A stretch of 64,000 nt of DNA from assembly GCA_004431415.1 (NCBI GenBank), contig QPMI01000457.1, positions 310,001 to 374,000 of the forward strand. Direction: 5' to 3'. Source of the stretch: Cyanophora paradoxa CCMP329 (taxonomy: Eukaryota; Plantae; Glaucophyta). The notes beneath the pieces were generated by a model. The model saw only the letters and a program-made list of their open reading frames with translations. It was not told the DNA's origin and did not search any database. The position numbers and the translations under genes were made by a program. This document shows, piece by piece, positions 12,401 through 64,000 of this stretch (positions within the stretch are counted from its first letter, which is position 1; the number at the start of each line of letters is the position of its first letter).

Positions 12401-15400
12401 CCTGCGGCGCCATCGTCGGGTCGTCGCGGTGCTGGCCCCAGAGGTAGACGCGGCGGGCGGCGCGGAGGATGGCGACGGCGGTGCGGTTGATGGTGTGCTG
12501 GATGTCGTCGAGGGGCGGGTTCATGGAGACGTTCGGGATCGTCAGCTCGATGTCGACGTCGAAGAAGGGCCGCTCGACGTAGAGGAAGCCGGTGGAGGCG
12601 CGCGAGCCGAGGCGCCGCTTCAGCAGGTTCAGCGAGTTGCGGATGGCGCCGATCACCGACGAGTACATCAGCTTCGAGTAGTGCCGCTGCAGCTTCTTCG
12701 CCTCGCTCGAGACGACGACGCTCTTCTCGTAGTCGCCGTCGATCGGGAACGAGAGGATCGACGCCACGAGGTCCTTCACCGCCGTCTCCACCGCCCAGTT
12801 CTTCTGGTCCATCAGCTGCGCTCGGAAACGGGGCGCGTCAGCCGCGCCCCCCCTCTGCCCGGCAGCGTCCGCACGGGCGACGCACCACGGCCGTGGCCTC
12901 GATGTGCTTGAGCTGGGTCGAGTAGAAGGAGTCGACGGTGAAGGACTGGAAGGCGGGGAGGTCGACGAGGAGGGCCTTGGAGACCGCCCGCAGGTTCCCC
13001 TCCACCCGGTTCTCGATGATGTCCGCGATCTTCGAGACGAGCTCCTCGAACTTCTGCAGCGCCGAGTGGACCCGCTGCAGGTACCCGTCGATGTTCATCG
13101 ACGTCCACGCGAGCTGCGGCGCCGCGCGTCAGCGCGGGTGTGCGGGACGGCATGGATCGAAGCGGCGCGCACGGAGGTCATGCCGGGCTTGATCTTGGCC
13201 TCGAGGTCCTCCATGTGCGGCTGCAGGGCGGCCCGCACCACGAAGGGGATCTTGGAGACGATCCGGTCGTGCTCCCGCAGCAGGAACGTGAGCGAGTTGT
13301 AGTAGTACTGCGCGCCGCGGCGCGTCAAAAGGGCGCAGGGGCGGGCCGGGGGGCGGGGGCCGGGGGGCCACGCGCCTTGAACTTCTCCTCCTGCTGGAGG
13401 ATCATGCGGGCGGCCTCGGGAACCTCGACGTTCATGCGCATGAGTGCCCGCGCCTCCTGCACGAGCTGCAGGATCTCCCGGTCGAAGTTGACGAACAGCT
13501 GCCCGTTCTCCGGGTGCCGGATGATGAGCGTCGCCTGCAGGCCGGCCCGCGCCGCCTCGATCGAGTGGCACCACGCCTGACGGGTTGTTTGAGCCACGTT
13601 GAAGAAGCGCAATCATAAAGAAGCAAGTGCAGCTACCCGGTGCCACAGCGTCTCGAACTCGATGAGCGCGCGCGCCACGCGGTTGTACGTGCGGATGATC
13701 TTCTTCGACTCCTTCGTCGACATGATGCTCTTGTTCGTCTGGAACTTCTTCATCGGCTCCTCGATGCGCCGCAGCAGCTGCCGCGACCACGCGATGTTCC
13801 CAGCCACCGGCGGCGCGTTGCGGGGCATCGGCGGGTGGAACTTCTGCTTCTCGTAAATCTGCGAGCCCGTCAGTGAGGGGCGGGGGTCGGGGGGCGGGGC
13901 GTCTGGGCGGGCGGGGTGGCGCGCGCCTTCTGGACGGTCTCGAGGTCGAGGCCGTAGTTGTGGAAGATGACCATGTACTTGCCCTCGAGGTCGGACTTGA
14001 GGGAGTCGCGGTGGAGGATGGCCTGGAACTTGCGGAGGAGGGCGAGGGCCGACTCGGTGGAGGCGATGTTCTCGAAGGAGGCGTTGATGAAGCCCTGGAT
14101 GGCCGCCTCGAGCTCGTGGACGCCCAGGTTGAACTCCAACATGTCCCGGTCGAACTGGTTCCGCGTGAAGTCCAGCAGGTCGTACGGCTTCGCCTTGAAG
14201 TCGTCCGCCATCTTGAAGAAGCCCTTCGTCAGCGTCTCCATCCCCTCGATGTTGTGCGACGCCAGCGACTGGAACTGCATGACCGTCGTGAAGAGGTCCG
14301 TCAGCTTGTAGACACGCTTGCAGAAGAGCTCGAGCCGCCCGAATATCTGCGCCTCGCTGAAGTCGAACTGGCGGCCCTTAGGCGCAAGCAGCAGCTTCTC
14401 CTTGACGCCCCGGTACGTGTCCTGGTACGCCTCGTTCAGGCGCAGGCAGGCCTCCAGCCGCTCCAGCAGCTCCGGGATCTTCTGCTCCCACAGCTTCCCC
14501 TTCGCCGTGATGTGCTGCTTGCAGTTCGTGATCATCTGCCGCAGCCGCCGCCCGTCAGCGGCAGGCCCCGCAGATGAGAGGGAAGGGTGGGGTGGGGGTG
14601 GAGGTGGGGTGGGGGTGGATGTGTGGTTGGGAGTTGGCGTTTGGGGCTTGGGGTTGGGGTTGGGGGGTGTTTTTTGGGGGGGGGGGGGGGGGGGGAAGTG
14701 GAGGGGGCGGGCGCGCCTGGTTGCTGATCTTCACGAGGAGGGTCGTCATGCGCTCCGACGTGTTGTAGTACCGCGAGATCGTGTGCATCATCTTCAGGTC
14801 TGTGCGCGCGCGTGGCGGGCAGCCGTCGGGCCGGCGCGCGGCGCGGGGGCAGGCGCGCAGACGCGCGGGGCGGGGCGCACTGTTCATGAGGCCGGGGAGG
14901 GTCTCCATGATGGAGTGCGGGTTGCCGTTGTAGAGCGGCTCGGTGTACTTCTCCAGCGTCGAGAGGTACTTCACGTTGTCCTTCGCCTCGTTCGCCGCGT
15001 CCGTGATCGCGTTGTCCAGGCTCCGCCACACCCGCAGCTGGCCCGAGCGCGCCGCCGTGAGCACGCCCACCACCCCCTGCGAGCGGCGCCATGCGTCAGC
15101 TGCGGCTGCGCGGGGGGCGCGGGCCGGCCCCGCCCCGCCCCGCCCCGCGCTCGCCTTGCACTCCTTGGTCTTGAGCTGCTCGGTGATGGAGTTGAACTTG
15201 CCCATGCGGCTGTGCCAGTACTCGAGCTCCGAGTTGGGGCCGGAGTCCTCCATCTCGCGGCGGCCCCGCTCCGGCTCGTGCAGGACGCGGTCCACCTGGT
15301 CGCACCAGATCGAGATGATCGCTGCGCGCCGCCCCCCGCGGAGCTCAGCTCCGCTCCGGCGCCCTCCGGCCTAGCTAAGCGCGCGGGCGGCGCGGCGGGG

Positions 15401-16376
15401 GCGCACATTCGTAGTGGGAGACGATCTCGGGGTCCGAGGCGGCGCGGTTGTACGCGGCGGCCTTGGGCTCGATCTCGTAGCGCCGGTCGGGCCGCGCCAG
15501 CTCCACGCCGCTCCGCAGGCTGTTCGCCGCCTCCGTGAGGGACTCCGCGAACTTGCCCACGCTAGACAGGTACTCCCGCTTCGATTCCGCGCTCGCCTTG
15601 CCCCAGTCCTCCATCCTGTGGCAAGAGCTCAGGCCGCGGGGCGGGGCGGGGCGGGGCGGGGCGGGGCGGGGCGGGCAGCGGCGGCGGCGGCCGCACTTGT
15701 GGAGAATGGGGTAGAGCAGCTCATTCATGAGCATCTGCAGGTTCTCGAGCGGGTTGCCCACGATCTCGTTGAAGATGATGTCCGTGTCGACGCTGGCGAC
15801 GCCCACGGGCTTCCCGGGCGTCGCCCGGAGCACGTATACGCCGCGTCCCACCACGCTGGCATCCTCGCCTGTCGACATGTAGAATGCGTTCGGCACTGCC
15901 GACAGGTCGATCTCCGCCCCGGCGGCAACCTTGTCGAGCACATCCTGCGGCGGCTGGTAGAAGAACCTGGCGAGCGCAGGGCGTGAGCAAGCGCCGCGCA
16001 AACGCTGAGCCTGGAGGCTAGCTCACAGCAGCTTGTTCACGCCGTTCGCAGCCAGGAAGAAGTCGTTGATCGTCGCCAGCGCCTTATCCTGCATGATATA
16101 ATCCTCGACGGTGGCCTCATTTTCGATGTCGAGGAACTCCCTTAACCGCAAGACGAGATACCTGTGCCTGCGAGGCGAGAGCCGGGCGTACGTCAGTGGG
16201 GGTGCATCGTGCACGGCCAGCGAGGTGGGTTCAAGCGGGCGGAGGATGGGAAGCTGGCTACATCGCACGACTATCGCCTCGAGCGCCGGGATAGCGTAGC
16301 TATCGCTGCAGGACCTTAAAGCTATCCGGGCGGGGCAGACGCGCCTGGTGTCGAATTTCCGAGCCCCGTCCGCCAT
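440..16376 (-). CDS. Axonemal outer-arm dynein heavy chain (DNAH5/DNAH8, Chlamydomonas gamma/ODA2 type), 29 exons
   Basis: Spliced translation gives the DHC_N1 tail ([20 protein letters not shown]; [26 protein letters not shown]; [13 protein letters not shown]), DHC_N2 ([14 protein letters not shown]), AAA1 [14 protein letters not shown] and [13 protein letters not shown]2 [11 protein letters not shown]3 [11 protein letters not shown]4 [10 protein letters not shown], the stalk, and C-terminal [10 protein letters not shown]. 28 introns traced by hand keep the frame. ATG at 16376, TGA at 440. Subfamily call rests on remembered tail motifs. Confidence 0.95.
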
Positions 16377-16641
16377 GTTCGGCGGCGGAGGCTGCTAGTT
16401 CACCTCCTATCTATCAAACTGTACACATAGCCGCCCTGCTGGTTGCGCTGGCGCTTTGCAGGTTGCTGGCAAGGGGGGTATAGCGCACGAGGCCGCATTG
16501 GGAACGACAGCAAACTTCAGCGAGCGGGGCCTGCACTTGGCATGAACGACAGCCAGACGCTAGCACCGCCTGTGGGCAGTCGGTCGCGCCTGCGGGTGCG
16601 CTTCCGAGCTGGCCGCGGACTTCGGCCCGATCTGACTAGAC
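16377..16641. promoter_or_regulatory. Putative bidirectional promoter shared by two ciliary genes
   Basis: Only 265 bp separate the divergent start codons of the dynein heavy chain and CFAP100. Confidence 0.55.
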
Positions 16642-25868: not shown

Positions 25869-25970
25869 CCTGAGGCCGGCAGCCTGCAGGCCCCAGCGCC
25901 GCCCCGGCACCGATGCCCCCCGCCCGGACTCCGGGACCCCTGCCCCAAGGCCTCCCCCCCACGCCCCTCC

Positions 25971-26005
25971 CAGTTTATCGCAGTTTATCGCAGTTATCCG
26001 AGTTT
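25971..26005. repeat. Short tandem repeat (CAGTTTATCG) x~3
   Basis: cagtttatcg cagtttatcg cagttatccg agttt. Confidence 0.7.
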
Positions 26006-27181
26006 AGGGTTATTTCAGATCGAGCGCAATTTTCAGCACGGGGAAAATACCGCGGAGCTCGAGCGCATGCGCAGCCTTTAAGTGCCCCCGGGTACGGTTC
26101 GGCCCCGGGCCGGCCGCGGGTCTTCGAATATACAGGTTTACAGCGGCCCGCTCATGATCATGATCAGCCACGTGCGTGTGCATGCATATGTGCGCCGCAA
26201 CGCGCGCGTGTGTAATTCAATTCCCCATTATTCCCGCAACTTGGCAATAGTAGGCGGTGCGCGCGGCGCCGACCGTCGGACGCGGCGCCGTCGGCACCGC
26301 GCCGCCGCCGGTCCGGCGCGCGCCGCGCGCGGCGGCGCCGGCGAGCGCTCGCCGCTCGGATCGGAGGGCCGACGGAGGCTCAGCGGCTGGCGCAGCGGCG
26401 GCTGCGGGCCTGCGCCGCGTGCGCATGCGGGGATGATATCATTGATATGATACTAGTATCGCGATTGCGATATATGCATGCGCAGGCTCAAGCAGCGCAG
26501 CAGGCCCCAGGCCCACAGGGCGAACGGCGGCCCCAGCTGCAGCCTGCAGCGCCCAGCGCGCGCCGCGCGCGCCGCGGCGCGCGCGGCGCCGGCGCCGCGC
26601 CGCCCCAGCTGTGATGAGCCGGCACCTAGCCTAGTACTAGTAGACTGAGATGACTGTAGATCTAGATCTAGAATCTAGATCTCTCCGAGGCGCTAGGCTC
26701 GGACTCCCTCGGAGCTCGCGGATGACGCGGGACGGCGGGATATTTGGACGGCGGGTGCGAGCGTGACGTGCGTGACGCTCTGCTCGCCGAACCGACGATG
26801 GGTTCGCGCGCCCTTTTTAACCAGCCATTCTGTATGGAAGCCTTTTTCTTTCAACGGCCGGAATCCCATACCCGGCGGTTTTTCAACAGATCGCGATCGA
26901 TCGGTGAAGCGGCCCGTCTTCGCGCGTATGCAGATCTTCAGGATCGATATCGGCGATCCGTATAGCGCGTATGCATGTTGAAGTTTGCGGCGTACGCATA
27001 GCGATATCGATAGCAGCTGCTGCTGCATGCGGCGGAAAGCAAGCAAAGCACCCAGCAGCACAACCGCGCCAAGTTTTGAGAGCGCACGAGCGAGCGCTTG
27101 CGCGAGACAGAAGCGCGACCAGCACGAGAGACCCTTGAGCTGAGAACTAGCTGCATTCCCGGGCGAGCGGCTGCAGGGAAG

Positions 27182-34048: not shown

Positions 34049-34885
34049 TTCGAATCAGGCAATCAGGCAGGTATGCTGAAGCCGATATTCAAGCTTCCGA
34101 TGTGTCGAATGCTTAGCTAAGCGCGAGCTCTGCCACGACGTCTATTTGAGCTCGGGAAGCGACGTCGCGTTGGTTGCGGCAGGACCGGGGACTCGGCGGG
34201 GAGGGCTGTCGGAAACTTGTCGATGCTTCGGACGAGCTCGGACGCGCTCGCAGGTCAACGTTCGCCGCTAGCTGGCGCCGGAACGGCCAATGACGCGTCA
34301 ACCTCGCAACCTTCTTCAAGCGGCTTCCTGGCACGCCGCACTGTGAGACTGTGGCTACCGTACCGGATCAGCGGACTCTTGCTGATGAATCTCAAGCTTG
34401 CGCCATGCTGGCGGGATGTGCGAACGGCCGAATTTTCCGGTAACCCCGAAAGAAAAGAAGACTTGTAAGAAGTCATCTGCGCACGCTTGATCGGAAGCTT
34501 GATCGGACTTCAACGAGCTTGCTCTAGATCAGAGAGAGCTGCGCATCGACTTCCCGGGCGCTCCTGCTCGACATCGAGGATTTGATCTTGGCCTTGCGGC
34601 TCCATCGTCCTTCTACGGGCGAGGATGCTCAACAGATTGTATGTAAGTCTCGTTTTTCTGCTATCGCAACCCTTACTCTCTGCAGCCGCCTCGGGGGGCG
34701 ATGGCGAGGCGATGTCGAGGCTCTGCACCGCGAGAGCCTGCAGTATCAGGAGCTCTACCTGAGCGCTGTCTCTGGAAAGCAGATGCGAATTGCTGCCGTC
34801 CAGACCGACGAGTGCGCTTACCCCGCTCACCCGGTTCCCTCCTCTGACTTCGACGCGTACGCGTCACGTCTGCACGCGCAGGCCT

Positions 34886-37701
34886 ATGGAGGCTAGCGAT
34901 AGAGTTCCGACCCGCCTCTCTCGCCTGGCGGCCGCGGTCTTCCGGCGCATCGATATCCCCTTCGCGGGCCAGCTCCTGCACCTGAGTGGAAAGAAGCGGA
35001 GCCGCGCGGTTTTCGAGGGATCGGACAACGACAGCAGCGAGGACGAAGACTTGACGTCGATTCCGAAGCTCCGCGCCCAAATCGTCCGCGAGAAAGAGAA
35101 GTTATCTGCGAAGACGGCCCTCGGCGAGGTGCGCTACGCTTATCCGGAGGTCCAGCTCCCGTCCGCTGTGCGGTGCACGCTGCGCCGGCGTCAGACAGCT
35201 CCGACCCATGTCCGTCCGGATCCCTGACGCGTGCCGCGGTTCACATGCGCAGCGCATCGCAGATCGTGGCTGTACAGACGGAACGCGTCGTCGCCTCTTC
35301 GCCGCTGGCGAAGCCCGAGCTGCTCGAGAGGATCAAGCTGCTCAAGGAGCTCCTTTCCTTTATGGACGCGCGGAAGGCAACGGCGCTGCGCGCGCGCTGC
35401 GCGCGCGTTTCCGTGGCTGTCCGGAAGGGGAAGGAGAAGGACCTGGCGCCCGCCCTTCCCTCCTCCACGTCTTCAAGTTGATCGTGCAGGTTCGCGCGAG
35501 GCTGATCCAGTCCCCCGTTCCCCCTTCCCCCCTTCACCTCTCTCAAGCGCTCGCGATCGTATCTAACGCGGGGGGCCGGGGCGCAGCGGGGTGAGGAGGA
35601 CGGGCACTTGCTCGAGGCGCATCGGCTGCTTTGCACTGCGATGCGTGTCTCCCGCCGCTGGCGCCGCCTCGCCTAACACCACAGCCTCTGGTCCACATTC
35701 CACCTACGGCGCGCCAGCCCGCCCTCCCGCCCTCCCGCCCGCGGCCTCCCACCGTCGTCCGTCCCCCGGCTGACCGCCCCGCGCAGCGTGCACGCGCTGC
35801 AGCTGCCGTGGGCCTCCCACGCGCTGGCGACGCTGCGCCGATTTCGTTCCCTCTCCCACCTCCACCTGGACGTCATCGTGGGGGGGTACCGCCTACATCA
35901 CCCACGATGACGCTGACTTCGATGTTGAGGAGGAGGAGAGGCGCTGCCTTTCGCTCCTTGAGAACGCCGAGGAAGGGGTAGCGGGCCCGCCGCCCCTCCA
36001 CCGCGTCCGCGCGCTCCACCTCCGCATCTTCGAGGCTCGCCGGCGCCGCCCGGCGCAGCCCCCAAGCGCGCCCCCCGCTGAGACCTCGGGTGCCGCTCAG
36101 ACGCAGCGGACCCTCGTGGACAAGGATAGCGCAGGGAGGCTGGCACCCGTCCCCGCACACCTCTCCTGGCTGCCCTCCTGTACCTCCGACGCTATCGAAG
36201 CCCTCGACACGCGCATTTGCAACTTCAGCACGCACATGCACACGCATGTTGAGACGGGTGCGATCTCCCTGGCCCGGACCATGGGCGGCTGCCGGCTCGC
36301 CCCATTGAGCGCCCCCCAGTGCGCCTCCTTCGTCTGCCGGAGCGCTTCCCCAACCTGTTGAACATCGCGCTATCCGGTGAGATCGGTTTCCCCTCTTCTG
36401 AGCTCGGCCTCTTCAGCTGTCCCTCCAACCGCCTCCTACGGTGCCTTTCTCCTTCCCCCCTCTTTCTCTATCTCTCTCTCTCTTTCTCTTCCCCCTCCTT
36501 TCATCTCCTCCCCCTTCCCCCCATCCTCGCCCTCCCCCCACCGCACCCCCTCTCTTCCCCCCCCTTCCCCAACCCCCCTCCCTCCCCAACCTCCCCCCCC
36601 CCCCCCTTCTTCTGCCCCTCTGCCAGCGGCGGCTGCCTAATCGCCCGCCAGGCTTGACTTCCCCGCGCACTTCGGGGGCCCCGACAACCCTCCGGCCAAC
36701 CTTCAGCTGCAGCGAGAGGTCCGCCAGCGCGCTCCCTCCCTCGCCCGGCGCTTCCTTGCTGACCCCGAGCGTCCCGCGCCTCCGTGCCTGTCTGCAGTTC
36801 CCGGAGCTGTGCTTTCTTCGACGAGCCGTGGCTGAAACCGCGGATGGCCTGGCACAGCTGGCGGACGCTTTCGCGCGCCCCGAGGGGGCCCCCGAGGAAC
36901 CTTCGGCGGAGCTCATCAAACTGGAGGCGCTGGACGTCGACTTCGGGGAGGAGGGGCAGCCGGGCGGCCCCAGCGGCGCGCGGGAGCTGATGCGCGCCTG
37001 CCTGGGGCGCGCCGAGCCGCGCGCCCTCGTGCTCAGCGCCTGCGCCGGCCTCCGAGGCTCGGCCGAGCCCTCGGCCCCTGCGTCCGGTGCGGCCCGCCCC
37101 ACGATCGCGAGGCACGTCCCTCCGGATCCGCGCCTCCCCGACCGCCCCGCGCCGCAGGAGCCTCGTGCTCGACTCCGCGGCGCTCGTGCGCCTGCGCCCC
37201 GAGGGCCCCCCGTGGCTCGCCAGTGAGCGCCGCCCCGCCGCTGCATCCTCCTTAAGCTTGCAATCACCGACCCGAGCGCCCAGGCGGGCCGCCCTCGGCC
37301 ATGAAACTCGCGCTCGAGTTCGACCCCAGCGTACAGTGCGCTCTTTGCCCCGGCGGGGGCGCGCCCCGTTTCCGTCCCCCGCACCTACTGACCCTTCCGG
37401 CCCCTCCAGGTACACCCCCGCCGCCGTCGCGCGGCTCGGCGAGGCCGCGATGGCCCTCCCCTCCTTGCGCCGGCTCGTCCTCCGCGGCGCCGGCGCCGAG
37501 CTATAGCTAGCGCTCCTCGGCGGAGCGCCCCGCCTCGCGGCCGTGCGTACCGGGCTCGGCCTGGGCCCCGTGGAGATCGTCGAGAAGGGCCCGAGGGCGA
37601 ACGCCCGAGCGGCGGATCCGGCCGCCGCGGGCCTCTGGCTCGCCTCGTCCTTCCTCGTACGCGTCGCGCAGCAGCAGGCGCCGGCGCCTGCGCCCGGGTA
37701 G
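34886..37701 (+). pseudogene. Disrupted F-box/LRR-like gene
   Basis: F-box-like ALP(S)LHVFKLIVQ...LLCTAMRVSRRWRRLA*HHSLWSTFHL with an in-frame TAA at 35674-35676. In-frame TAG at 37504-37506 within LPSLRRLVLRGAGAEL*LALLGGAPRL. Frameshifts near 35460 and in the G7 run at 35880. Confidence 0.55.
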
Positions 37702-42981: not shown

Positions 42982-44041
42982 ATGCACGCCTTCGCGGCCG
43001 CCTGCGTACCGCCTGCGTTCGAGGCGCCAGCCGCGCCGATAGCGACAGCGGCTGTATCTTCGCGCTCCTGCGAGCCGGCGGCCGGGCGGCGTGTGCGGCG
43101 GGTCGCGGCTGCGGCGTCGGCGGCGGGCCCAGATTCTCGAAGAGCGGCATACTCGCCGTCATGCGAGCCCGTTCGCGCGCCGGAGACTCCGCCGGCCATT
43201 TCTGCGTGGCGCTGCGGCGGTTCGCGTGCGGCGGAGCGGTCGCTGACGGCCTGCGGCTGGCTCGCCGGCAGCAGCTTCTTCGAGCGCTTCTACGCAGCTG
43301 GCCTCCGCTTGGCCGCTGGATCCGGAGCTGAGCGGCCGCAGCAGGCGATGCGCATGACGTCGCGGCAGCCGCCTCAAGATCACCCGCCGACCGAGCGGCC
43401 CCAGCGCCATTCTGGCAGCGCGGCGAAAGCCGCGGCGCCGCAGCGGCGCGTCTACAGGCCCCCGCCGCCGCCCGTGTCGGACTTTTTCCCGTCGGACCTT
43501 CTCGCGGGGGACCTCCTCGCGCTCGCGGCGGCCTCCTTCGCGCTGCACGCGCTGGAGCCGTCGCTGCTCCCGCCCGGCGAGGCGGCGCGGCTACTGCTGC
43601 AGCGCGCCTCGGAGCGGGACCTGCTCTTCTGGCCGGAGAGCGCGTGGGACGTCTTCTTCCCCTTCCTCCCCTGCTGGCTCGTCTCGGCGCGGCTGCACGG
43701 CTCCGCCACGCCCGGCGCCGTCAGCGACGTGCAGTCGGCCGCCGCCGCCTCCTTCCACACGTGGCTCGTCGCCGCGCCCGCCGCCCTCCTCCTCCGCCTC
43801 GTCGTCCTCCACGCGTACACGGGGCCCCTGACCCCGGCCTACGCCACCGCCTTCTTCGCCGTCACGCTCAGCTTCGCGGTGCGGCCCGCCCCCTCTGGCA
43901 AGAGCCGCCGAGCTCGAGCCCCGCCCCGGGCCCGCCGCGCCGCTCATGCCCCGCCCGGTACCCCGGGCCCGCTGCTCTGCGCAGGTCGCGTGGAGGGTGG
44001 CGTACACCGTGATACACCTCTCCCGCGGCCAGCAGTCGTGA
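42982..44041 (+). CDS. DUF3054-like membrane protein with plastid transit peptide, 2 exons
   Basis: AGDLLALAA, PFLPCWLVSA, TWLVAAPAALLLR and, after an intron ending 43984, VAWR match the DUF3054 pattern. The N-terminal extension begins MHAFAAA and is Ala/Ser/Arg-rich. Confidence 0.65.
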
Positions 44042-45867
44042 CGCGGCCGCGCGCGGCTGCGGCTGCGGCATCGATCGGTGTCGCGATCGGCGTGCCCGAC
44101 CGCGTGTGTATAGGCAGCAATAGCTTGCTGCAGGTATGCGCAGAGACAGTACTATTCCCCGGCATTCTTTATCATAGTAGATGTGTAGCATTGTGTACTA
44201 TAGTTCATCCTTTCACTCAATATGTCCCATCTGCAGTCTCGGAGAGATCTTTGCACGCAGCTCCTCCCCACCCTGATCGTGACAGTACTAGTGTCAGCCT
44301 GGCAGATTTTTCATTCACTGAGTCACGAAGTCTCATGATCAGAGTCTTCGGAAAAATAGCACACGTACGCAGCTCATGATCAGCTGCAGGCGGCTCCATG
44401 ATTAGGGCCCCGGGAATAGATTATAATATTAGAGTCCCGCAGCAGATTTAGAGCCTCGTAGTCCGGGATCCCGCGCGCGCTTTAGCTTCGGCGCCTTGAG
44501 CGGCGAGCTCCGGATCCGGCCCAGCGGTTTTAATTAACGTTTCTTGAACTCGCGTCTAGATATCGATCTAGATCCGCATCGATATCCTCGCGCGCGCAGC
44601 TCGAGCTCTTCGAATTCCGAGTTGATATGCCGCAGTGCATGATCATGATATCAACTTGGCAAAGCATGCACATTTCTCATGCCGAGTCGATGCAGCTGCC
44701 GACTTCCCTTGAGCTTCGAATTCGCGCGCCACCGGTACCGTACCGCGGGCCGCAGTACTAAGTACCGGATCTAGATCTAGAGGTCCCGGGCCGGAACTCG
44801 AACTTGGAACTCGGAACCCTAGGCCTCAGTGCCTAGCCTACCGGTAGGCCTCTCAGCCTTAGCCAGCCTACCGGTAGGCCTCTCCGAGGCTCAGGCTAGC
44901 GCTAGATCGGTCAGCGACGGTACCGGTCACCGTGGCACTGCGGCACTCGAGCTCGGCGGCCTCGGCTTCGAGCTCCCTCGGCGCCCGGCGGCCCAAATCT
45001 CTGCCAGTGCCCGAGTTTTCGCCACAGGGCCAGGAAATCCTCCTAGCGCGCGGCTAACTCGTAGCGAAAGGCCCTGAGGCTTACGCTTGCCTCCGAGGCT
45101 AGAGCTCGAGCTCGAGCTCTCGAGCTCGCCGGGCTCGGCGCCGCCGCGTCGGCCGGGCCCAGCCCTCGACTCTCCGTGCCCGTCGGCCGACAGTCGATCC
45201 GGAGTCCGGTCGGAGTCCGGAGTCCGGACTCCGGAGTCCGGACCCCCCTCGAAGCCTGCCGGCGCCAGGCTGGCAAGTGCTTCTGCAGCCTCGCGAAGGC
45301 CGCGCGCACCGCGGCGGCCGATCATCGGATATATATCGATCGCCGCGGCGCGAGGCCGCGCCGCGGGTCGACGCCGTGACGCGTACGACTTGATCGCGAC
45401 TCGCCGCGGACGCATTCATGCGTCATGATCAGGGCATCTGACGCCGGAAGTTGACCGTCGGACGGAGTCCGGATCCCCGTCACCGGCGTCACCGCCGTCA
45501 CGGCGTCACTGATCATGACGTCGACTCAGCTTCAGCCTTCAGCCTTCAGGCTTTTTCCGAAGTCGAAGCCTTGAAGCTTTTAAGTGGCGGCGTACGCGCA
45601 GTGTCGTCGCGCACCGTATACGTAGTACCGCGGCGTACGTATACGTCATGGCGGCGTGATGGTGCTGTGGGCCTGTGGCACATCCACTGCGCATGCGCCT
45701 GGCGGCCGCGCCAACTGCAGCGAGCGCATCGACATCGGCGCGAAGCGCGGTCCTGGAGCCTCGGAGCGGAGCCTCGGAGGGAGCACACGCGAGCCGACGA
45801 CGTCGCTTTTATTCGCACGTACGCGTGCACCACGTACGCGTCGCTTGAGCTAGTAGCCTACAGCTTC

Positions 45868-48800
45868 ATGCTGGGAGACGCGACGCCGCTGCTGGGTGAG
45901 CCCGCCGGAAGCAGGGCGATCGCAAGGCGCAATCTTCTCTGGGTGCGCGGCTGGGTCGCCGCGCTCGCGGGCGGCGTCGTCATCCTCCTGCTCCTCGCTG
46001 CGGCGTGCGAGCCTTGCAGGAAGGGCATTTCAGCAGCGCGTAGGGAGCAGCGCGCACACAACATCGATCGCGAGATCGATGGAAACCGAATTTCTCGAGC
46101 TCCAGTTGCAGCTGTGGATGCTGGCCTAGGTACGTATACGTATACTGGTGCATCGCAGCTCTAGATCTTCATGCATATATATATAATCATTGAATTATAA
46201 ATGATCTGACGGCGCCGGCCCGTACGCGTCGTCCCCCAGCGAATCCTCGGCCCCGCTTCCAGCTTGGCTTTATCTCGATGGCGGCCAGAAACGCGCGCCG
46301 CAAAACGATGGAGCCTCTCATGCAAGCGCATTCTCCCCCGCCGGGCCAGCACTCATGGGAGGTGCGTATACGTACGCGCGGCCCTGCGCATGCGCGCGTC
46401 CCCGGCCCGAGGGGGATCCGGCGCCGGCGGCCTAGGCCTTATCACGACCCGGCCGCGGCGCGCCCGTGCACGTATACGTACGCGTGCTTGGACCTGCACT
46501 GCACCTGACGCTTTCTTTCCGCACGGCGGCGGCAGCTGTTTTCGCCCAAGCAGCTTCCGAAGAGCTGGTTCGTCTTATAAATTAATGCGCTTTTAACTGC
46601 TGCCGGCCGTTGCGCCTCGATCGTACTATTAATTATATTAAATATTGTAGTTTGCATGATGACGTCGACTGATCACAAATCCAATGTAAGGGATTGGCGG
46701 ACTGCCGGAGGCCCCAACGTGAACCGTGCGCCGTCCGGATCCAGCCGCGCACACAACACTGTGACAAATTAAATATATAGCACTTTATAGCTAGCTCAGC
46801 CCTTTCGATCAATCTTCGAAACTCTAATCTATCGATTGTGATTCGAAATCGCAGTTCTTTCTCAGAACAACCAGCAGCATTGGGACGTTGTCTCGGTGCA
46901 CGCGACCCCTGATAATGAAATTGAAAACTCACAGAGAACTAAACTCTCTAGATCTTTAGTTCAATTGCAAATCTAACAGCATGCGCAGGGTTGCGGCGCC
47001 TGCTGGGCGTTCTCTTCTGTCCAGGTCGCCCCTACTCCCCGCCCCTCCCCCCCCCCCCCCCCTCCCCCCGCCGGCGGCGCCCCCCCCCCCCCCGCCCCCC
47101 CGCCCCCCCCCTCCCCCCCGGGCCCCCGCCTGGCCCCCTAGCCTCCCTTTCCTCCTGTCTCTCTTCCTCTCTCAATTCGCGCGTCCTTCAGGCACTCAGC
47201 GACCGCATTTCGATCGCACGCAACGGATCTTTCCCATCCATCACCCTCGTAATCCGGGCCCTCCGCCAATATTTTGCCATTAATGGCGACGTCGACCTCC
47301 GCATGCCTGCACCTGCTGATTACAGTGACGTACCCAGGCCCAGCAAGTGCTCCTAAATTGCCAAGATTGCGGCGACTGTGAAGTGCGTCTCGCTGGGCGG
47401 ATTATAATTACGGCGTCTCTTCTAGATCTAGATCTGTCAACATACGTCTGTTAATATTAATGCGCGTGCAGGACGGAGGCGACGCGCACTGCGTCATGGG
47501 CTATGTGCAAAAGGTGCGCTGGGGGCTTTACTTTCCTGCAGCTGCTAGCGCCGCGTGCTTCGAATTCGACATTCTTATTGCGTGCTTCGCCAGTACGGGC
47601 TTCCGGATCACACGTGCCAGCCATACCTCTGCCGGACAGGCAAGGAGTGCACGCCGAACGGAAAGGCGCGCTGCCTCCAGTTCCCGCACTAGTACTGCGC
47701 ACTGGCACCCAAATTCAAATTTCCGAGTTCCGAGCTCACATGCATGTGGCCGTTATACGTATACGCGCATGCGCATGCGCAGGTTGGACACGATAACTGC
47801 CTCCCCGAATGCGAGTGTTTCAACCCCGCGCCCGTTGGGGACACCCGCTAGTGCGCGCGCGGCCCTGTATACATGCAAGGCTTAAGCTTCCGCCTTTCAA
47901 CGTTAATTATAACTTCCGGGCCGTTCCGTCTGATCATGACCCGCGGGTGGTCGCTTTTGCAGCGCCATTACCATCTTCAGGAAGTGGTATTTAATTTTTG
48001 AAGTGCCATCAATCCTATATAGCTAACATAGGCTGTGAATTCGCGCATGTGCAGGTACGTCAAGTATCACGGTTCAATCCCTCCAAACGACGTGCATGCA
48101 ATGAAGGCGCGCTATGATAACGCCCACATATATTTCGAAGCTTGGAATTATGGTCGCGCTGATTGCGAGAGGGGTGCGCAGGCGGAGATTTACGCGCACG
48201 GCCCGATCGTCTGCGTGCGCGAGCCGCGCGGCAGTCGAATTTTAAATTGATTCTTCCAAGAGCGCTTCAAGATCAAGGTCCTTCTCCGAGGCTCGTTTTT
48301 AATGGCCCTTCTGCTCGCAGGCTTTTTATGCTTCCGACTTGTTCCAGTACTCGTGAGCGGACCGGATCCGGATTTGCAAATTGCATGCTGGCCGATCACG
48401 AATGGCTGCGCGCAGGTACGCGGGGGGCGTGTACTCGGAGCCAGGCGACTACGACCCCCCCCAGTTCAACCGTGCGCGCTGAAGCTTAAGCCTGATTACG
48501 ACTTGGCTTTGCGGGCCTAGGCCTGACGCCTAGCCCTCCGGGTCCGGGCGCGTGCTCCGCACCGCGCAGACCAGGTCGCCGTGTCGGGCTGGGGCGTGGA
48601 CGAGCGCGGGCGCGAGCACTGGATCGTGCGGAATAGCTGGGGTGCGTGGCCCCCGCGCCGCATCCTCAAGGCCTCCGCCCTCATCCCCCCCCTCCCCCCC
48701 CTCGCCCTCCCCTCCCCTCTCCCCCCTCCCCTCCTCCCCCTCCCCCCTCCTTCCGCCCTCCCCCCCCCCCCCGCCATTGCGACCGCGATTTTTTGTTTAT

Positions 48801-49170
48801 AATCACGCGGAGACAGGGACGTTCTGGGGCGAAGAGGGCTGGTTCCGCATCCAGATGGGCGGCGATAACCTGGGAATCGAGAAGTACTGCACGGTGCGCG
48901 TCGGCATATGTTCACCCGCGGCCGACCGATTAATATTATAATTAATTCGAATTCCGAGGCCACGCAAGTGGCCATATGCATGCATATGACCCCGGCGCGC
49001 GCTGGCGTACTCTGACCGGTCGCTCAGTACGGCACGATCGATATGGAGCGCAGCGGGCCGGTGCCCCCGACGCCCCTCTCCCACTACTGTACGAATCCCG
49101 GCGCCCCCTCTAGATACCGCGCGCCTTTGAGTTTGACTGCTCGCTGCAGACACGCCCCCTGGTTTTAGGA
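45868..49170 (+). CDS. Cathepsin Z/X-like papain-family (C1A) cysteine protease, many small exons
   Basis: Spliced LPKSW|DWR, QQH...[12 protein letters not shown] (catalytic Cys), [29 protein letters not shown]...QFNH|QVAVSGWG (catalytic His codon split by an intron), WIVRNSWG|[11 protein letters not shown] and NLGIEKYCT. The 5' exons and 3' end are provisional. Confidence 0.85.
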
Positions 49171-49416: not shown

Positions 49417-51187
49417 TCAACGCCGGACGCAGAGGTTAACAACAGAGGGAACCGGCGCCGCCCAGCTGATCCCCGCCTTCTCGATGGCGCGGTCGTAGAG
49501 CGCAATCGAGCTGCCCGCGGGAGCCTGCGGTGAGAGGGGCGCGAGAGGCGGCGAGGGCGAAGCGGGGCGCATGCGCACTTGTACTCGCCGCAGACGTCCC
49601 TCTCCCAGTACGGGTTGACGTTCCAGGCGTAGCCGCAGTCCGTGCACGAGGCGGACTGCCCGAAGCGCGTCGCCGAGTCGAGGTTGCCGGAGAGCAGGCA
49701 CTCGGCCCCGCTCGGCCTCATCGGGTCGCGGGCGAGGGCGAAGAAGCGGAGGCCGCGGCCGTCCGCCTCGGCGGCGCAGGCGCAGCGGGAGAGTTCGGGC
49801 GTGGCCGGCGCGAAGCCCTCGACACGCAGCATCGTGCCGGTGCCGGAGTTGGCGGTGTAGCAGCCGCGGTAGGTCGAGCTCGAGGTCGAGTTGGAAGGGG
49901 GCGGGCAGTCGAGGTACACGGGCTCCGGTCCGATGGGGGAGGGCGGGCTGTCGGCCGTCTGAAGAGAGGGGGAGGGGCGGGGTGGCCCGAGTGAGCTTGG
50001 CAGCGCTTAGGGAGGTAGCGGGGGGCGCGGGTGCGGGGCGGGGGCCGGGGGCACGGCTGGGGCGGGGGCTACGACGCGTACGGGGGCACGGCGAGGGCCC
50101 GGGGGGGGGGGGGGGAGGGGGGGGCGGGGGAGGGGGGGGGACGGGATAGGGAGGGGCGGAGAGGGAGGGGGAGGAGGAGGGCCGGAGGGAGAGGGAGGTG
50201 TGTGTGTGTACATCTGTGTGTGTGTGGGGGGGGGGGGAGGCGGAGGGGAAGGGGAGGGGCGAGGGGGGTGGGTGGGAAGGGGGCGGAAGGGAAGGGGAGG
50301 GGGCGAGGAGGAGGAGAGGCCGAGGGGGAGGGGGGGGGCGGGGGGGCGGGGGGGGGGGGGGCGGGGGGGGGGCCGGAGCGAGGAGGGCTGCGCACCAAGA
50401 ATCCCATCATGAGGTAGACGGCTTTCAAGCCTGGGGGCAGGGGCGGTCAGGGGGGCCTCTGCGACGACATCGGTGGCTCACTGCCGCCCTTGGGGAATGC
50501 CAAGTACGTGCGGACGCTGAAGACGGCGTTCTTCTTGGCGAGAACGGTGCCCCCGAACCGGACGTTCAATCTAACGTGCGACGTCGGTCGGAGGGGGGCA
50601 AGAGAAGCGGGATGTACAAGAGACGTCTCACGCGTCTTTGTGAGTAGACGGGGCGACCTTGAGCGTTTCCCCGACCTTGACGAACGCCCCGCTGCTGTCC
50701 GCCATGCGCGCCTCGATGACGACGTCCGCCTCGACAGGGCCCATAATGGTGAAGGAGGGCCCCATGGGATAGAGGTCGCTGACCCCGTTCAGCGTGAAGT
50801 TCCATTCGATGTAAGCACCATCGAAAATCGTCGCTGCGCGGCCATGCCGCCGTGGGAAGCGGCCGCGGGGATCAGCAAATTAAAGGATCAACGGAGCAGC
50901 AAGGACCACTCACTTCCGCCGGTGATGACGAGCCCGCCATCGGCGATTGTGAAAGAATATGCCGGGTCAGAGCTCACGGGGCTTAGGGGAGCAACGGTGT
51001 AGAACGGCGTGGATGTGTGCTCCGGGTTGAAGCCTGTGAAGCCGCCGTAGCTGCGGAAATCGAAAAGCGTCGAAGTCGAGGCGCAGTTCGCGCCGAGGAT
51101 GCCGATCTGGAAGGCCGCCGCCAGGAGCAGAGTAGGGAGCACGCCCTTTAGGCTTAGGCTCGGCCCGACGCTGGACTGCATACGCAT
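49417..51187 (-). CDS. Secreted Cys-rich protein with Pro-rich linker and WSC-like C-terminal domain
   Basis: Signal peptide-like GVLPTLLLAAAFQIGILGANCA. C-terminal YRGCY...CACAAEADGRGLRFFAL...ECLLS...SASCTDCG...CG...SIALY follows the WSC cysteine pattern. Confidence 0.55.
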
Positions 51188-52247
51188 CACCGTTAACGAT
51201 CGTGCTGGTCCTTTCGATCGCAATGCGCATGCGGATATCGATCAGCTGCAGTATACGTAGGATCGCGGTGGCGCACGCGTGAACGAACCGTATTCAACTT
51301 AAGGCCTGCTCTACAGCTGCAGGACGCCGTTTCGGACGCACAGCCTGCCAGATTTGGACCTCACGGGGCGGGGGAATGGATCTGTGCAGGATGCGGACGG
51401 TCAGTTGCGGGTGTACGCGCCGGCCTCTTGTCTTATCGTTCGAAGCCTCCAGAATAGAAGACATGCGTCCGACTTACCTAGGCCTGCAGATCTGATCGAT
51501 GCTTGACGGTACCACGCCGTATAGCGTACCCCGTAGCTCGGCGCGAGCCGTGCCTTGTCACAGCTGCAGCGTGCTCTGCTGCGCCGTGCACGTGCACGTG
51601 TACGTATATATAGCGCACAGCTGCAGCTGCGTATACGTATACGCGTACGTATACTATACATGATCATGATCATATGCGCATGCGCACTCGCGCATGCAAA
51701 AATGCGCGCTCATGCTTCAGTCAAATATTATAATTACGTCTTAATAAAGATCTAGAGCCCTACAGCTACACATCAGCTGCAGACGCGAGCCGCTGAGCTG
51801 CAGACCGTCGGACCCGATCGCGAGCCGCTGCAGCCTGGCACGGAACACGGCCTTAGAGGAAACCATGCCGTCAACTGAACTTCGGAAGTGAGCGAGCAAA
51901 AATTCCTCCAAGTAGTATATAAAGAGCCCAAAGAGCCCTACATGTACACATTGATATCAAACCGATCCGAGCACGGATCGGGAAAAGCGAGCCTGCACCT
52001 GGTTGCTAAGTTAACTTAATAAAAAGCAAGACTCTGAGAAGAAACGCGCATCGCGCTACGGATTCAAGAAGAGCCGATGCTAGGCATATATACCAAGAAT
52101 ATCGTACATGCGCTCTAAGCTTTTAAGGCCGCCATGTAGCACGTCGACGTCGATCCCGGAGAAGAGGGGAGTTCGACGCCATGGGAACACGAGCCAAGAC
52201 GAGAAAGGAGGGGGCGCAGGGCCGGCTGAAAAGCCGGGTCATGGTCA

Positions 52248-53888
52248 TCACGAGCAGGGGGCGGGGCCGGCGGCGGCGGCGGCGGCGGCGGCGCGGAGGG
52301 CGTTCAGCTCGGCGGCCATGTGCTCGACCTGTCGCTGTAGCTCCTCGTTCAGGTCGTGCGCCTGCGGGGGGCGGGGGCGGGGGCGGAGGTGGGCAGTGAG
52401 AAGAGGCAACGCGGGGGAGGGGCGGGGCGCACGATCTCGAGGCGCTCGTGCAGGCGGAGGAGCCGCTCCTGCGGGCGGGCGGGCGGGCGGGCGTCAGGCG
52501 GCAGGCGACAGGGGCGCGGGCCGGGGGAAGCTTAAGGCGGCGGGGCTCGCCTCGTTGGCCTTGGCGACGCGGACGAGGTCCCGCGCCTCGCACCGCGCCG
52601 CGTCCCGCTCCCCCAGCGCCCCTGTACTAAGATTAGATCCAGCTGGGAAGGCTTGAAGGCTGGGGAGCGGGCGGGGGCGGACGCTGGAGGCCGGAGACGG
52701 CCTCGGCGAGGCGGTGCCGGAGCGAGTCCTCGGAGGCCAGCAGCTCGGCCTGGGGTGGGGTGAGGCTAGGGCGGGGCGGGGCGGGGCGGGGCGGGGCGCG
52801 CCTCGCGGACGGAGAGGCGGCGCTCCGCGATCTCGGTCTCCTTGGCGGGCTCCGGGGCCGCCGGGAAGCGCCGCACGGTCGGCGGGGCGTGCGCCCCGCC
52901 GCCGCCGCCGGCCGCCGCGGGGCGACTCGTCGCACGCGTGCGCCGGCGGGCACGCGGCCGGCGGTTGCTGCAGCTGCTGCGGCTGCAGCAGTTGCTGCTG
53001 CTGGGAGTGGCGGGCCGCGCCTCGGGGGGGTGAAAGCGGCGGCGGTGTCGGCGTCGAGGGAGGCGGCGCGGCCGCGCGGGGCAGCGGGCGGGCACCTCGC
53101 CCTCGCCCTCGTCCCCCAGACCGCCCCGGCGCCCTCCTCCTCCTCCTCTTCGGAGGAGGTCCAGCCGCCGCGGGGCGGGGCCGAGGCGCAGGCGACGGGG
53201 TCCGGGAGGGATTCGAGGGAGCGCGGGGGAAGAGGCCCGAGCGCGGGGCCGGCGGCGCCAGGCGGCCGGGCCATTGCCACGCCGCCGCGGCCGCCGGGGC
53301 CGCCTCCTCGTCCGAGGCCGCCTCCAGCGCGCAGCCATAGGAGGCCGAGGAGCGCGGCGTGGCGGGCGCGCTGCCGCCGGGCGTGCGCAGGCCGGGGCGC
53401 CGCCGCTCCTCGCCCGGGCTCACCGAGCTGTACCGCCGCTGGGAGCCGCTCTCGTGTATGAGGCGAATGACGCGCGGGGCGAAGAGCGAGGGCCGCCGCG
53501 GCAGGGAGGGGTCCCTCCTCAGCGGCGCCGGCTCTCGGAACGGGTTGGGGGCCTCCTTCCGAGCCTCGGTCGGCTCCGAGCTATTCAGGGGAGAGCATCG
53601 AAGGGGGCGGTCGCCGCTCGACGCCCGCCTCCTCGCCGCCCGATCGCGGGGCGACTCGCACGGCCCCGTGCGCGCCAGCTGCACGTGCGCCCCCGGAACG
53701 CCGCGGGGCGCTTCCGTATCTGCTCCCGGATTAACGTAAGCCGTGCGCCCTCGTCCCGCGCGAAGTAACGCACCGATCAGAGACGGGGGGCCCGAGCCCG
53801 AGCGAGCCAGCGGCGATCCGATGCTGGCCGATCCGGTACCTAGCGGCGGGGCGGCTGCGTCTTCCAGCAGTTCGGATAGAATCTGCAT
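52248..53888 (-). CDS. Hypothetical low-complexity protein with C-terminal coiled coil
   Basis: Spliced coiled-coil exons TEIAERRLSVRE|AELLASEDSLRHRL and AHDLNEELQRQVEHMAAELNAL...CS-stop. Confidence 0.45.
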
Positions 53889-61944: not shown

Positions 61945-62441
61945 CCCCGCCCGGCCCCGCCCGACCCGGACCATGGCCAGGATCCGGGGCTGTACGTACG
62001 TGTAGCTAGCAAGCAGAGCGCGAGGGGGTCTCGTCGACGTCGGCGTCGGACCCCCCGACCCGTAGGACTCGGATTTGTTGTAGCTCGGGGGGCGGGTACG
62101 CCCCCAGAACCGTAAAATAAACCATCGATTACTAAGTTACTAGCTCAAGCTTAAGGGGCTAGCGCTCGGGCTGTCCGCCATTAGACCGCCAATTGCAAAC
62201 TCCAGCCCAAACTTGGCAAACTTGGCGGCTAGTCGAGCCGCCGGGCCGGCTGGCGGCCAGCTTGAGGGCAGCCTCTTGCGCATGCTGCGCATGCTATAGC
62301 TAAGTTGCCATATGCATGGCCAGAAGTCCTAGCTATATATAGCTATATATAGGCTTCCGGATCCGCGATTTCGCGGGGTTTCGCGCCCGGGGGGCGGCGG
62401 GGGCCCGGCAGCGGCGGCGGGGGGCCGGGCCCCGGGTGGTA

Positions 62442-62713
62442 CCGTAATGAGAATATTAAGGTCTGTACTTTATTATGTCATCCCCAAATTACGTCGCCTC
62501 TGACGTGCGATAACGACATAATTCGGGACCGTCATGGTAGGGCGCCGGCACGCTCAGTGGTACCCAATCAAATTTACCGTCCATATACAGCCTAATACAG
62601 GCCTGAAAATTTCATGCCGACATAATTTGGCCATGGGGGCGTCATATTTCGCATGCGCATAGAGAAAACTCGGGTTTTACAACGACATAATTATATAAAA
62701 TATAATATTACGG
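62442..62713. mobile_element. Candidate Tc1/mariner (pogo/Tc2-like) MITE
   Basis: Ends CCGTAAT and ATTACGG are inverted repeats, each flanked by TA. Internal CGACATAATT occurs three times, with an inverted ATTATGTC near the left end. AT-rich, no ORF. Confidence 0.45.
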
Positions 62714-63608
62714 TATGCATATGTTGCGACTTCTTGTCATTCCGTTATATGAATGACTATTCTTAAAAACAAGTGCCTTCTTTTAGGTTCTTTATATTGC
62801 TGTTAACGTTGCGTTACGAATCCGAAAAAGCGAACTTCAAGTAGGGGTACCGGTGCGGCTTTAAGCCGGCTTGTTGCGTGCGGCTTGACGGCCAAGCCAA
62901 GCCAATTGCAAGCCGGCCGGCCGCGGCAGTGGCCGGCCGGCCATGATAATGATCATATGCATGAATGCATTTTTACAAATGCCGGCCGGCTCATTAGCAA
63001 ATGCATTTTGCAAGCGCGCTCAAGCTTGGCCCGCCTTGAGGCAAGCTTAAGCTTCAAAGGCTTAAGCCTAACTGTGAGGGGGGGCGGGTACTTTATTATA
63101 CCTACGTATACGGTACCCTTCAGATTCAGGCTTCAGCTTCGAATTCCGGATTCCGCATGCGGCTCCGACGGCTCGTTGGCGGCTCCAAGCCCTGCAGCTG
63201 AAGCGTTAGCCGCCGTTAGGGTGTGCTCAATGAATGGACAATTGTCGCTTGTTTAAACTTTGAAATTGCATCTTTTTTTGCGTCTGAGCCGCGGGGTCGC
63301 GGGGCGCCCGCGCCGGCCCCGCGGCCGCGGGCGCCGGCCGCGGGCCGCCGCGGCCCGCCGGCCGGCGCCCCGGCCGCGGGGGCCGCGCGGCCGCGGCCAT
63401 GGCCAAGCCGGGCCAACGCGCTAGTTCTAAACCTACAGTATGAGGCATATTTTATTTCCTGTACTAAATTAACTAGTTCTACAGTACGTATGCGGCATAT
63501 AATAGTATATGATCATGATATATATATGCCGCTATATACCAGGGTACTATAAATTCTATAATATGTCTATACTGTTAGTACTCTACTACTACAGTAGTAC
63601 TAATCTAT

Positions 63609-63754
63609 CTTCTGATCGTGTCCCTTCTCGTGATCCCTCTTGATTCTGTATATATTTTGTGCTAGTTTACTGTATCTTTGATTTGTGATTGCTTTGTTGT
63701 CTTTAATATCACTACCTACGGGGGGTTCGCCCCACCGTAGTCTCTCAAAAAAAA
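63609..63754 (+). mobile_element. Short retroposed insertion (5'-truncated LINE 3' end or SINE)
   Basis: 13-bp direct repeat AGTACTAATCTAT at 63596-63608 and 63755-63767, an A-tail at 63747-63755, and a stem-loop just upstream of the tail. Confidence 0.7.
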
Positions 63755-64000
63755 AGTACTAATCTATACGATTCTATAGTCCCGTAATTATTATAAACGT
63801 TAACGGTAAACGTTATAAGTTAACTAATAACTTATAAATACCGTTAACGCCGTGACGAACTTCGCCGCCGCCGCGTTGAACTTTCGGAAGTTCGGGCCGG
63901 GAAACCGTTGAATCGAACGGGAACTTGAACAATGTAACGGCCGCACGGGAACTTATGTCGTGACGCCGACGTCACGCCGTCACGTCGCCGTAACGGCGAG

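Follow-up and report, generated by a model that had tools for sequence, protein, structure and literature searches.

Palindrome-rich spacers of a Cyanophora paradoxa locus as a pile of small insertions of two exact forms, probably transposon excision footprints

The palindromic texture of the non-coding DNA in a 64-kb stretch of the Cyanophora paradoxa genome (64,000 nucleotides; hereafter the window) is a pile of small insertions made under two exact rules, by which a three-base unit u becomes either u-rc(u)-u or u-C-rc(u)-G-u. Both rules are seen directly in the sequence, together with a palindrome excess, a nesting of the words and their near absence from divergent promoters and from a conserved dynein gene. 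The two words, here also called scars, are probably excision footprints of cut-and-paste transposons that have a 3-bp target duplication and hairpinned flanks and are followed by rejoining at microhomologies that P nucleotides provide; the element itself, of a type resembling EnSpm or Plavaka, would have contributed the fixed C and G as its terminal bases.

All counts come from this one window, and the borders of its regions were chosen by eye from gene anatomy after the palindrome profile had been seen, so that the densities given are somewhat inflated. The window has a GC content of 69% and short GT-AG introns that can be read directly off the sequence, matching the C. paradoxa genome (haploid, 99.94 Mb, GC 67.6%, mean intron 86 bp; PMC6704402, in part). 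Protein searches returned no named glaucophyte, their best matches being MMETSP transcripts at 64-65%. Three genes frame the analysis:

440-16380: axonemal dynein heavy chain gene
43332-44618, plus strand: upstream gene with a DUF3054-like domain (Pfam PF11255, 24.1 bits, slightly below the cut-off of 25)
45868-49110, plus strand: downstream gene with a hydrophobic N-terminal anchor and cathepsin-like exons (motifs read by eye)

The downstream gene, which from its motifs we take to be of the cathepsin family, gave no Pfam match in the frames tested. Contigs guessed to be RNA, from runs that span parts of the window only, omit 43878-43983 within the upstream gene and run to 44618, so that the start of the scar-dense tract, 44400-45660, may be the 3' UTR of the DUF3054-like gene. 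RNA-guessed contigs with loose ends at 45868-49110 suggest paralogs of the downstream gene elsewhere.

An earlier reading of the same DNA (the original prediction) held that its non-coding part is rich in palindromes, and the excess is borne out against a shuffle null. The tract contains 114 six-base palindromes against 45 expected from block dinucleotide shuffles. The 500-bp bins at 44001, 44501 and 45001 have 34, 50 and 42 palindromes of at least 6 bp, compared to 9.8, 12.0 and 17.4 in dinucleotide shuffles (z 8.4, 11.6 and 6.7). As had been proposed, the texture recurs elsewhere in the window (1-500 bp; 26.0-27.0, 29.5-30.0, 51.0-52.0, 54.0-54.5 and 62-64 kb), with 46.0-48.5 kb as a further place, and it is largely missing from divergent promoters: five divergent or 5' spacers have 68 six-base palindromes against 56 expected. 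The dynein gene has 372 against 345. A palindrome level that 20 of the window's 128 bins of 500 bp attain is attained by 0 of 1,509 such bins in a control of 80 metagenomic dynein loci from other eukaryotes, among which there is no close relative. The longest palindrome in the window is a perfect, GC-only one of 30 bp at 26560-26589.

The excess is generic in sequence. The top 11 over-represented 4-mers are all palindromes, and all 16 palindromic 4-mers lie within the top 24 of 256. Each of the 64 palindromic 6-mers is present and 60 exceed their order-1 Markov expectation, a comparison with the outcome that the original prediction had looked for, here within the window. The rate of 6-bp palindromes is alike for all four centre dinucleotides (0.19-0.25). 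Selection for symmetric methylation, protein-binding sites or RNA structure in 3' flanks would agree with the bias of the scars to 3' flanks, with the RNA-guessed contig extending to 44618 and with the finding that some CpG methylation in C. paradoxa builds up near the ends of expressed genes (PMC12344493, in part). Still, the presence of every palindromic hexamer and the like behaviour of the four centres leave the earlier proposal of selected methylation or binding sites unsupported, the unit is a three-part insertion and no site, and the words also occur within a MITE copy whose sisters are without them. Selection is thus a very improbable source of the texture.

Behind the palindromes stand two exact words, for which statistics were taken over 11,188 bp of spacers and scarred introns. 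With u as any three bases, class I is u-rc(u)-u and class II is u-C-rc(u)-G-u. Palindromes with an arm of exactly 3 and zero loop number 502 against 164 (3.1-fold), those with arms of 1 and 2 stand at 1.0- and 1.2-fold, and arm 3 with loops of 2-8 is at chance level (0.9- to 1.2-fold), the excess thus being confined to loops of 0-1; a few longer palindromes with loops of 4-7 are enriched. Hexamer centres come in pairs at a distance of 3 bp. There are 142 chains with two centres, 10 with three, 7 with four and 1 with five (5.6, 0.2, 0 and 0 expected), as +6 steps would produce, and this spectrum, with two-centre exceeding three-centre chains 14 to 1, identifies the 9-mer u-rc(u)-u as the unit. 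Class I words are found 187 times against 9.2 expected, and a unit of 3 dominates the range from k=2 to 10 (116 vs 55 at k=2; 9 vs 1.6 at k=4; 3, 1, 2 and 0 words at k=5 to 8). In use are 28 of the 32 triplet classes, two of the four absent ones having been removed by the dinucleotide-repeat filter, and no spacer-to-spacer homology appeared in a self-BLAST of the window with dust on; the earlier view that neither one satellite nor one TE family is responsible therefore stands. Plain 3-bp tandem duplications (u-u) show no enrichment (72 vs 79).

Class II words with the C/G pair occur 37 times against 0.8 expected. The remaining 15 letter pairs at the same junctions give 16 occurrences in all, 13 of them one letter off C/G. 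The base preceding u is C in only 17 of 74 class II flanks, so the C and G do not derive from the target. A site preference exists, weak and symmetric: 115 of 284 flanks have C ahead of u (p 2e-5). Words that clearly mix class I and class II are scarce (12 vs 1.8), with other mixed letters equally common, and this scarcity points to two separate systems. The 2-base analogue of u-C-rc(u)-G-u has no clear enrichment in the window (4 vs 1.1). Class II makes up 4 of 54 words in genes and 27 of 148 in spacers, a lower share in genes that is not significant (p 0.077). Together the two classes reach about 20 words per kb, or about 220 exact scars. The 80 metagenomic loci (776 kb) contain class I words in mild excess (474 vs 289, no more than 1.55 per kb) and, for the class II form, 50 C/G against 42 G/C words; the class I excess there, like that of the dynein gene (19 vs 9.8), probably comes from codon structure. 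The region of the downstream gene has 36 class I and 3 class II words, of which those read by eye are intronic. This region is AT-richer and scarred, in contrast to the dynein gene.

Recursive undoing of both words takes 41 events in the tract, compared to 1.9 ± 1.1 in shuffles, and removes 21.6% of its bases. Over the regions analysed, six-base palindromes fall with this undoing from 759 (330 expected) to 377 (254 expected); about 70% of the excess is gone and about 30% is left, the residue consisting only partly of one-mismatch words (180 vs 121). Five divergent spacers with a total of 2,605 bp give 3 collapse steps. The places concerned, none with a strand assigned, are these:

44400-45660: scar-dense spacer with 27 class I and 13 class II words, many overlapping or nested; exact words cover 370 of 1261 bases
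44555-44572: class I word (44559-44567) within an older class I word; two collapse steps
44836-44879: 14-bp palindrome in two copies 30 bp apart; the two rules do not undo it
44928-44954: series of three words, two of class II that overlap and one of class I, preceded by a class I word at 44919
45101-45127: 20-mer with the adjoining sequence, a single triplet with three class I events; three collapse steps
45212-45243: array with a 7-bp period, containing a 22-mer; the two exact rules do not undo it
25870-27050: second scarred spacer, 25 events vs 2.7
51180-52130: third scarred spacer, 24 events vs 1.0
61950-64000: fourth scarred spacer, in which two MITEs and the end of a retroelement are nested
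62442-62715: TA-flanked multi-copy MITE with short inverted ends, in a scarred spacer; depth up to about 100 times single-copy

Three of the five palindromes quoted in the original prediction are perfect (the 20-mer at 45101, the 22-mer at 45222 and the 14-mer at 44836 and 44866); the 18-mer at 44555 and an 11-mer at 44734 are present in imperfect form, the 18-mer because one class I word nests in another. The array at 45212-45243 may be due to repeated mixed events, with one zero-loop end and one C-loop end (+7 bp), or to a 7-bp version of u-rc(u)-u, and the pair at 44836-44879 would represent a long P-nucleotide footprint, tandem-duplicated later. Another region, 34640-37700, with a gene lacking Pfam matches, is scarred too (20 events vs 2.6).

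The MITE at 62442-62715 allows the words to be compared with sister copies. Its only class I words are three, at 62541, 62628 and 62651. At 62628, sister contigs six letters shorter account for a depth of 1881 of 8068 in run X2 and 932 of 4113 in run X11; at 62541 they account for 203 of 644 in X11, and in X2 gapped rows are 0 of 902, in each case among the matches listed. Past 62654, 5 and 3 contigs have loose ends that pick up six letters further on, with 16 of 19 letters alike. Part of the depth of the MITE family is unexplained at each of the three sites. Sister copies without exactly six bases thus exist at all three class I sites and have the bare u there, so that the class I event is an all-or-none insertion; parsimony argues for gain in this copy and not for loss in the sisters, the sites tested being class I only. 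The differences among sister copies are for the most part C>T and G>A at CpG, the pattern that methylated repeats should show.

The MITEs and the retroelement end that are stuck in the window sit in the same spacers as the scars. The second of these MITE-like elements, also TA-flanked (63434-63575), has what we take to be Tc1-like ends; its left part is at about 55-fold depth, and one bin is without a contig. A poly-A retroelement 3' end at 63609-63753, which has a terminal hairpin and a target duplication of 12-13 bp, reaches up to about 2000-fold depth and is scar-free.

In the proposed mechanism, an element would insert at u, which is thereby duplicated, and on excision its transposase would, by analogy with systems discussed below, seal each flank as a hairpin. 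A host nuclease of the Artemis/Pso2 kind would open both hairpins a few bases beyond the tip. Since the flanks end in the same triplet, their palindromic overhangs would be complementary and microhomology joining would converge on u-rc(u)-u (+6 bp); by our own derivation, openings 2 or 3 bases from the tip would give the identical 9-mer. For class II, a second family or a second cleavage mode may nick one base inside the element, whose terminal C would then stay in each hairpin loop; along one strand these bases would read first C and later G, and the product would be u-C-rc(u)-G-u (+8 bp). Scars would be tolerated past gene 3' ends and in some introns and purged from shared promoters, hence pile up and nest, and the haploid cell, often without a repair template, may resort to end joining. 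Consistent with this scheme, the target duplication is kept on both sides of the palindromic insert in both classes, at the counts given above, and the unit length matches a 3-bp target duplication, a 5-bp duplication minus one base per side being identical in appearance for class I. Putative C...G ends combined with 3-bp duplications suggest, as candidate family, the EnSpm/PlavakaB branch within the CMCT clade. The scars themselves most likely record mutation and are without function.

Forward simulation of the footprint process at 0.15 events per substitution step yields 488 palindromes of arm 3 and chains of 277/134/6, compared to the observed 502 and 300/142/10, and rates of 0.15-0.3 bracket the observed spectrum; the observed 80:20 class mix was supplied by hand, so that class II fits by construction. 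Rival processes were each simulated at one rate. Two-centre chains, observed 142 times, then number 41 for a single 3-base addition, 92 for iterated fold-back, 17 for geometric copying and 6 for snap-back, and iterated copying exceeds the observed longer chains (59 vs 18). These results bear on the mechanism originally favoured. Its general claim, a mutational process that puts local reverse-complement copies into unconstrained DNA, holds; the specific processes named (iterative fold-back, Pol-theta-like snap-back, ab initio synthesis) do not fit the loop and arm spectrum, the two-centre dominance, the fixed C/G that the flanks do not supply, or the simulations. In a wider form, replication or Pol-theta template switching, as fold-back or as a four-point switch returning before its start, would account for the sequence-generic symmetry and for the few enriched longer palindromes with loops of 4-7. 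Four-point events that return before the departure point do exist, appear as insertions and generate local perfect inverted repeats in one step; those described are rare and variable in length and geometry, with no fixed unit or constant letters (PMC7954356, in part). In the window the arm-3 excess is absent at loops of at least 2, the unit is fixed at 3 with two-centre chains dominant, and template switching cannot give a constant C/G; we consider it quite improbable. Snap-back or Pol-theta templated insertions, with loops of at least 3 and variable length, were rejected on the arm-3 ratio at loops 2-8 together with the simulation.

The footprint reading has its own difficulties. About 220 exact scars imply heavy transposon traffic, and it counts against footprints that TIR searches of the 64-kb window found no intact C...G element with a 3-bp duplication (only low-complexity or chance-like pairs) and that Pfam on 93 window frames found no transposase domain. 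The words are also more uniform than the heterogeneous footprints of Ac/Ds, and the 22-mer and 14-mer resist collapse. A missing element would be natural if the breaks were element-free, with a host or domesticated nuclease making cuts staggered by 3 nt, followed by fill-in, hairpin formation and rejoining, at sites where no transposon ever was; class I and its fixed length would follow as well. Such breaks require fill-in before hairpin sealing, yet u-u duplications are not in excess, and they leave unaccounted for where class II gets its C and G, which are fixed and strand-symmetric. We regard this route as unlikely overall; element-free nuclease and template switching are the alternatives that remain for class I.

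As excision footprints, the words have clear mechanistic relatives. Hairpinned flanks were demonstrated in vitro for hAT, Transib, RAG and Muta1 (MULE), and their opening by host enzymes such as Artemis was proposed (PMC5499845, in part). P nucleotides and microhomology mark the Ac/Ds (hAT) footprints known in plants, S. cerevisiae and C. albicans (PMC5873905 and PMC2921059, each in part). Ac/Ds footprints involve an 8-bp target duplication, palindromes centred on the complement of the element-adjacent flank base and heterogeneous products (PMC5873905), studied one locus at a time, whereas the window words are uniform and have a 3-bp unit, with either no loop at all or a loop of fixed C/G that the flank did not template. 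A hAT origin was rejected, both on the few words at k=5 to 8, the range of hAT target duplications, and on class II flanks without the C/G that hAT geometry needs: the words work like hAT/RAG-type footprints but fail the hAT test in duplication length and loop base.

RAG hairpins have zero-loop geometry, and the target duplication of Transib is 5 bp. With Transib/RAG, Muta1 and the P nucleotides of V(D)J coding joints the words share host-opened flank hairpins, class I being what perfect hairpins predict; the target duplications of Transib/RAG and Muta1 are longer, and excision of Muta1 is over 90% precise when the donor is flanked by target duplications (PMC5499845, in part). EnSpm, with CAC..GTG ends and a 3-bp duplication, and PlavakaB, with CATCA..TGATG ends and a 2-3-bp duplication, have catalytic motifs in common with Transib/RAG1 (PMC12730594, in part). 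The window words resemble EnSpm/CACTA and PlavakaB in the 3-bp unit; a C start and a G end would be shared too, class II suggesting these two bases only out of the CAC..GTG or CATCA..TGATG termini. No transposase family, and hence no DDE transposase with C(2)C and H(3-4)H motifs, turned up in the 93 window frames. Footprints of the window's form were not found in the literature for this branch. Tgm9 is of CACTA type. Its footprints were 4 and 0 bp, neither +6 nor +8 (PMC4015899, in part). Excision of DNA transposons near grass genes likewise leaves gene-proximal scars that shape non-coding DNA, although there as varied deletions, fillers and point mutations (PMC5023962, in part) and not as one exact word over a fifth of a spacer.

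Single excision footprints are textbook knowledge, and cut-and-paste transposons normally leave no countable trace once gone. The chemistry is established; we have met neither the scale nor the uniformity nor the C/G loop class in print. A literature search outside the subscription journals gave no report of a palindrome texture or a mutation-accumulation study in Cyanophora, of a genome-scale footprint word or of spacers in which footprints are a major constituent. The text of Price 2019 makes no mention of palindromes. A supplement of PMC12344493 does not mention EnSpm, CMC or transposase, and a palindrome survey is confined to arms of at least 10 bp and makes no mention of Cyanophora (PMC13155455, in part). 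What the window adds is the 3-base, any-triplet form, the coexistence of two classes and the sister-copy test.

We advance as a tentative proposal, a serious possibility that we stop short of favouring, that transposon excision, rather than point mutation or transposon remnants, is a principal author of this glaucophyte's non-coding DNA, through two hairpin-forming systems with 3-bp targets, one of which nicks a base inside its own C...G ends, the spacers being nested records of the traffic. If true, there would be roughly one scar per 3-7 substitutions. The nick one base inside C...G ends is a geometry that we have not found described. An exact scar at this density would make the spacers a log of past excisions, in which one could read how long the duplication of so far unidentified elements is, which bases end them, how their hairpins are built and which targets they prefer, and would offer a measure of lifetime transposition against substitution. 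The scars also show that palindromes resembling restriction sites in 3' flanks may arise by mutation and do not have to be regulatory. The footprint reading predicts an uncharacterised, highly active CMCT-type system in glaucophytes; under the tentative proposal, should there be no mobile family genome-wide, a domesticated RAG/EnSpm-like nuclease would be the suggested writer.

The sequence of the tract is supported by short-read contigs. Contigs of the DNA runs X1 and X14, at 43000-45240 and 45214-47029, have 0 differing letters and 0 gaps relative to the assembly and no mutual differences in the tract. They break only at the 22-mer, where the two contigs share just 27 letters and which no single contig spans. 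The runs may be from the same strain as, or the source of, the assembly, and run X21 yielded no indication of a second strain. An artefact of assembly or amplification, or else slippage of microsatellites at chance palindromes, could appeal to the stop at the 22-mer and to this shared origin; against it stand the letter-identity of two runs, a slippage simulation with only 10 two-centre chains and a pattern that tracks gene anatomy, making it extremely improbable. Selection and artefact are both unlikely.

At 53002-53224, one-base insertions within G/C runs appear in all three runs covering the place; they are probably long-read errors of the reference and may break the frame of the gene there. 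Long G-rich or C-rich intronic runs of G-quadruplex-like character lie at 10790-10980, 14570-14710, 47030-47130, 48680-48780 and 50090-50380, and short-read pieces are cut or skipped at the last three.
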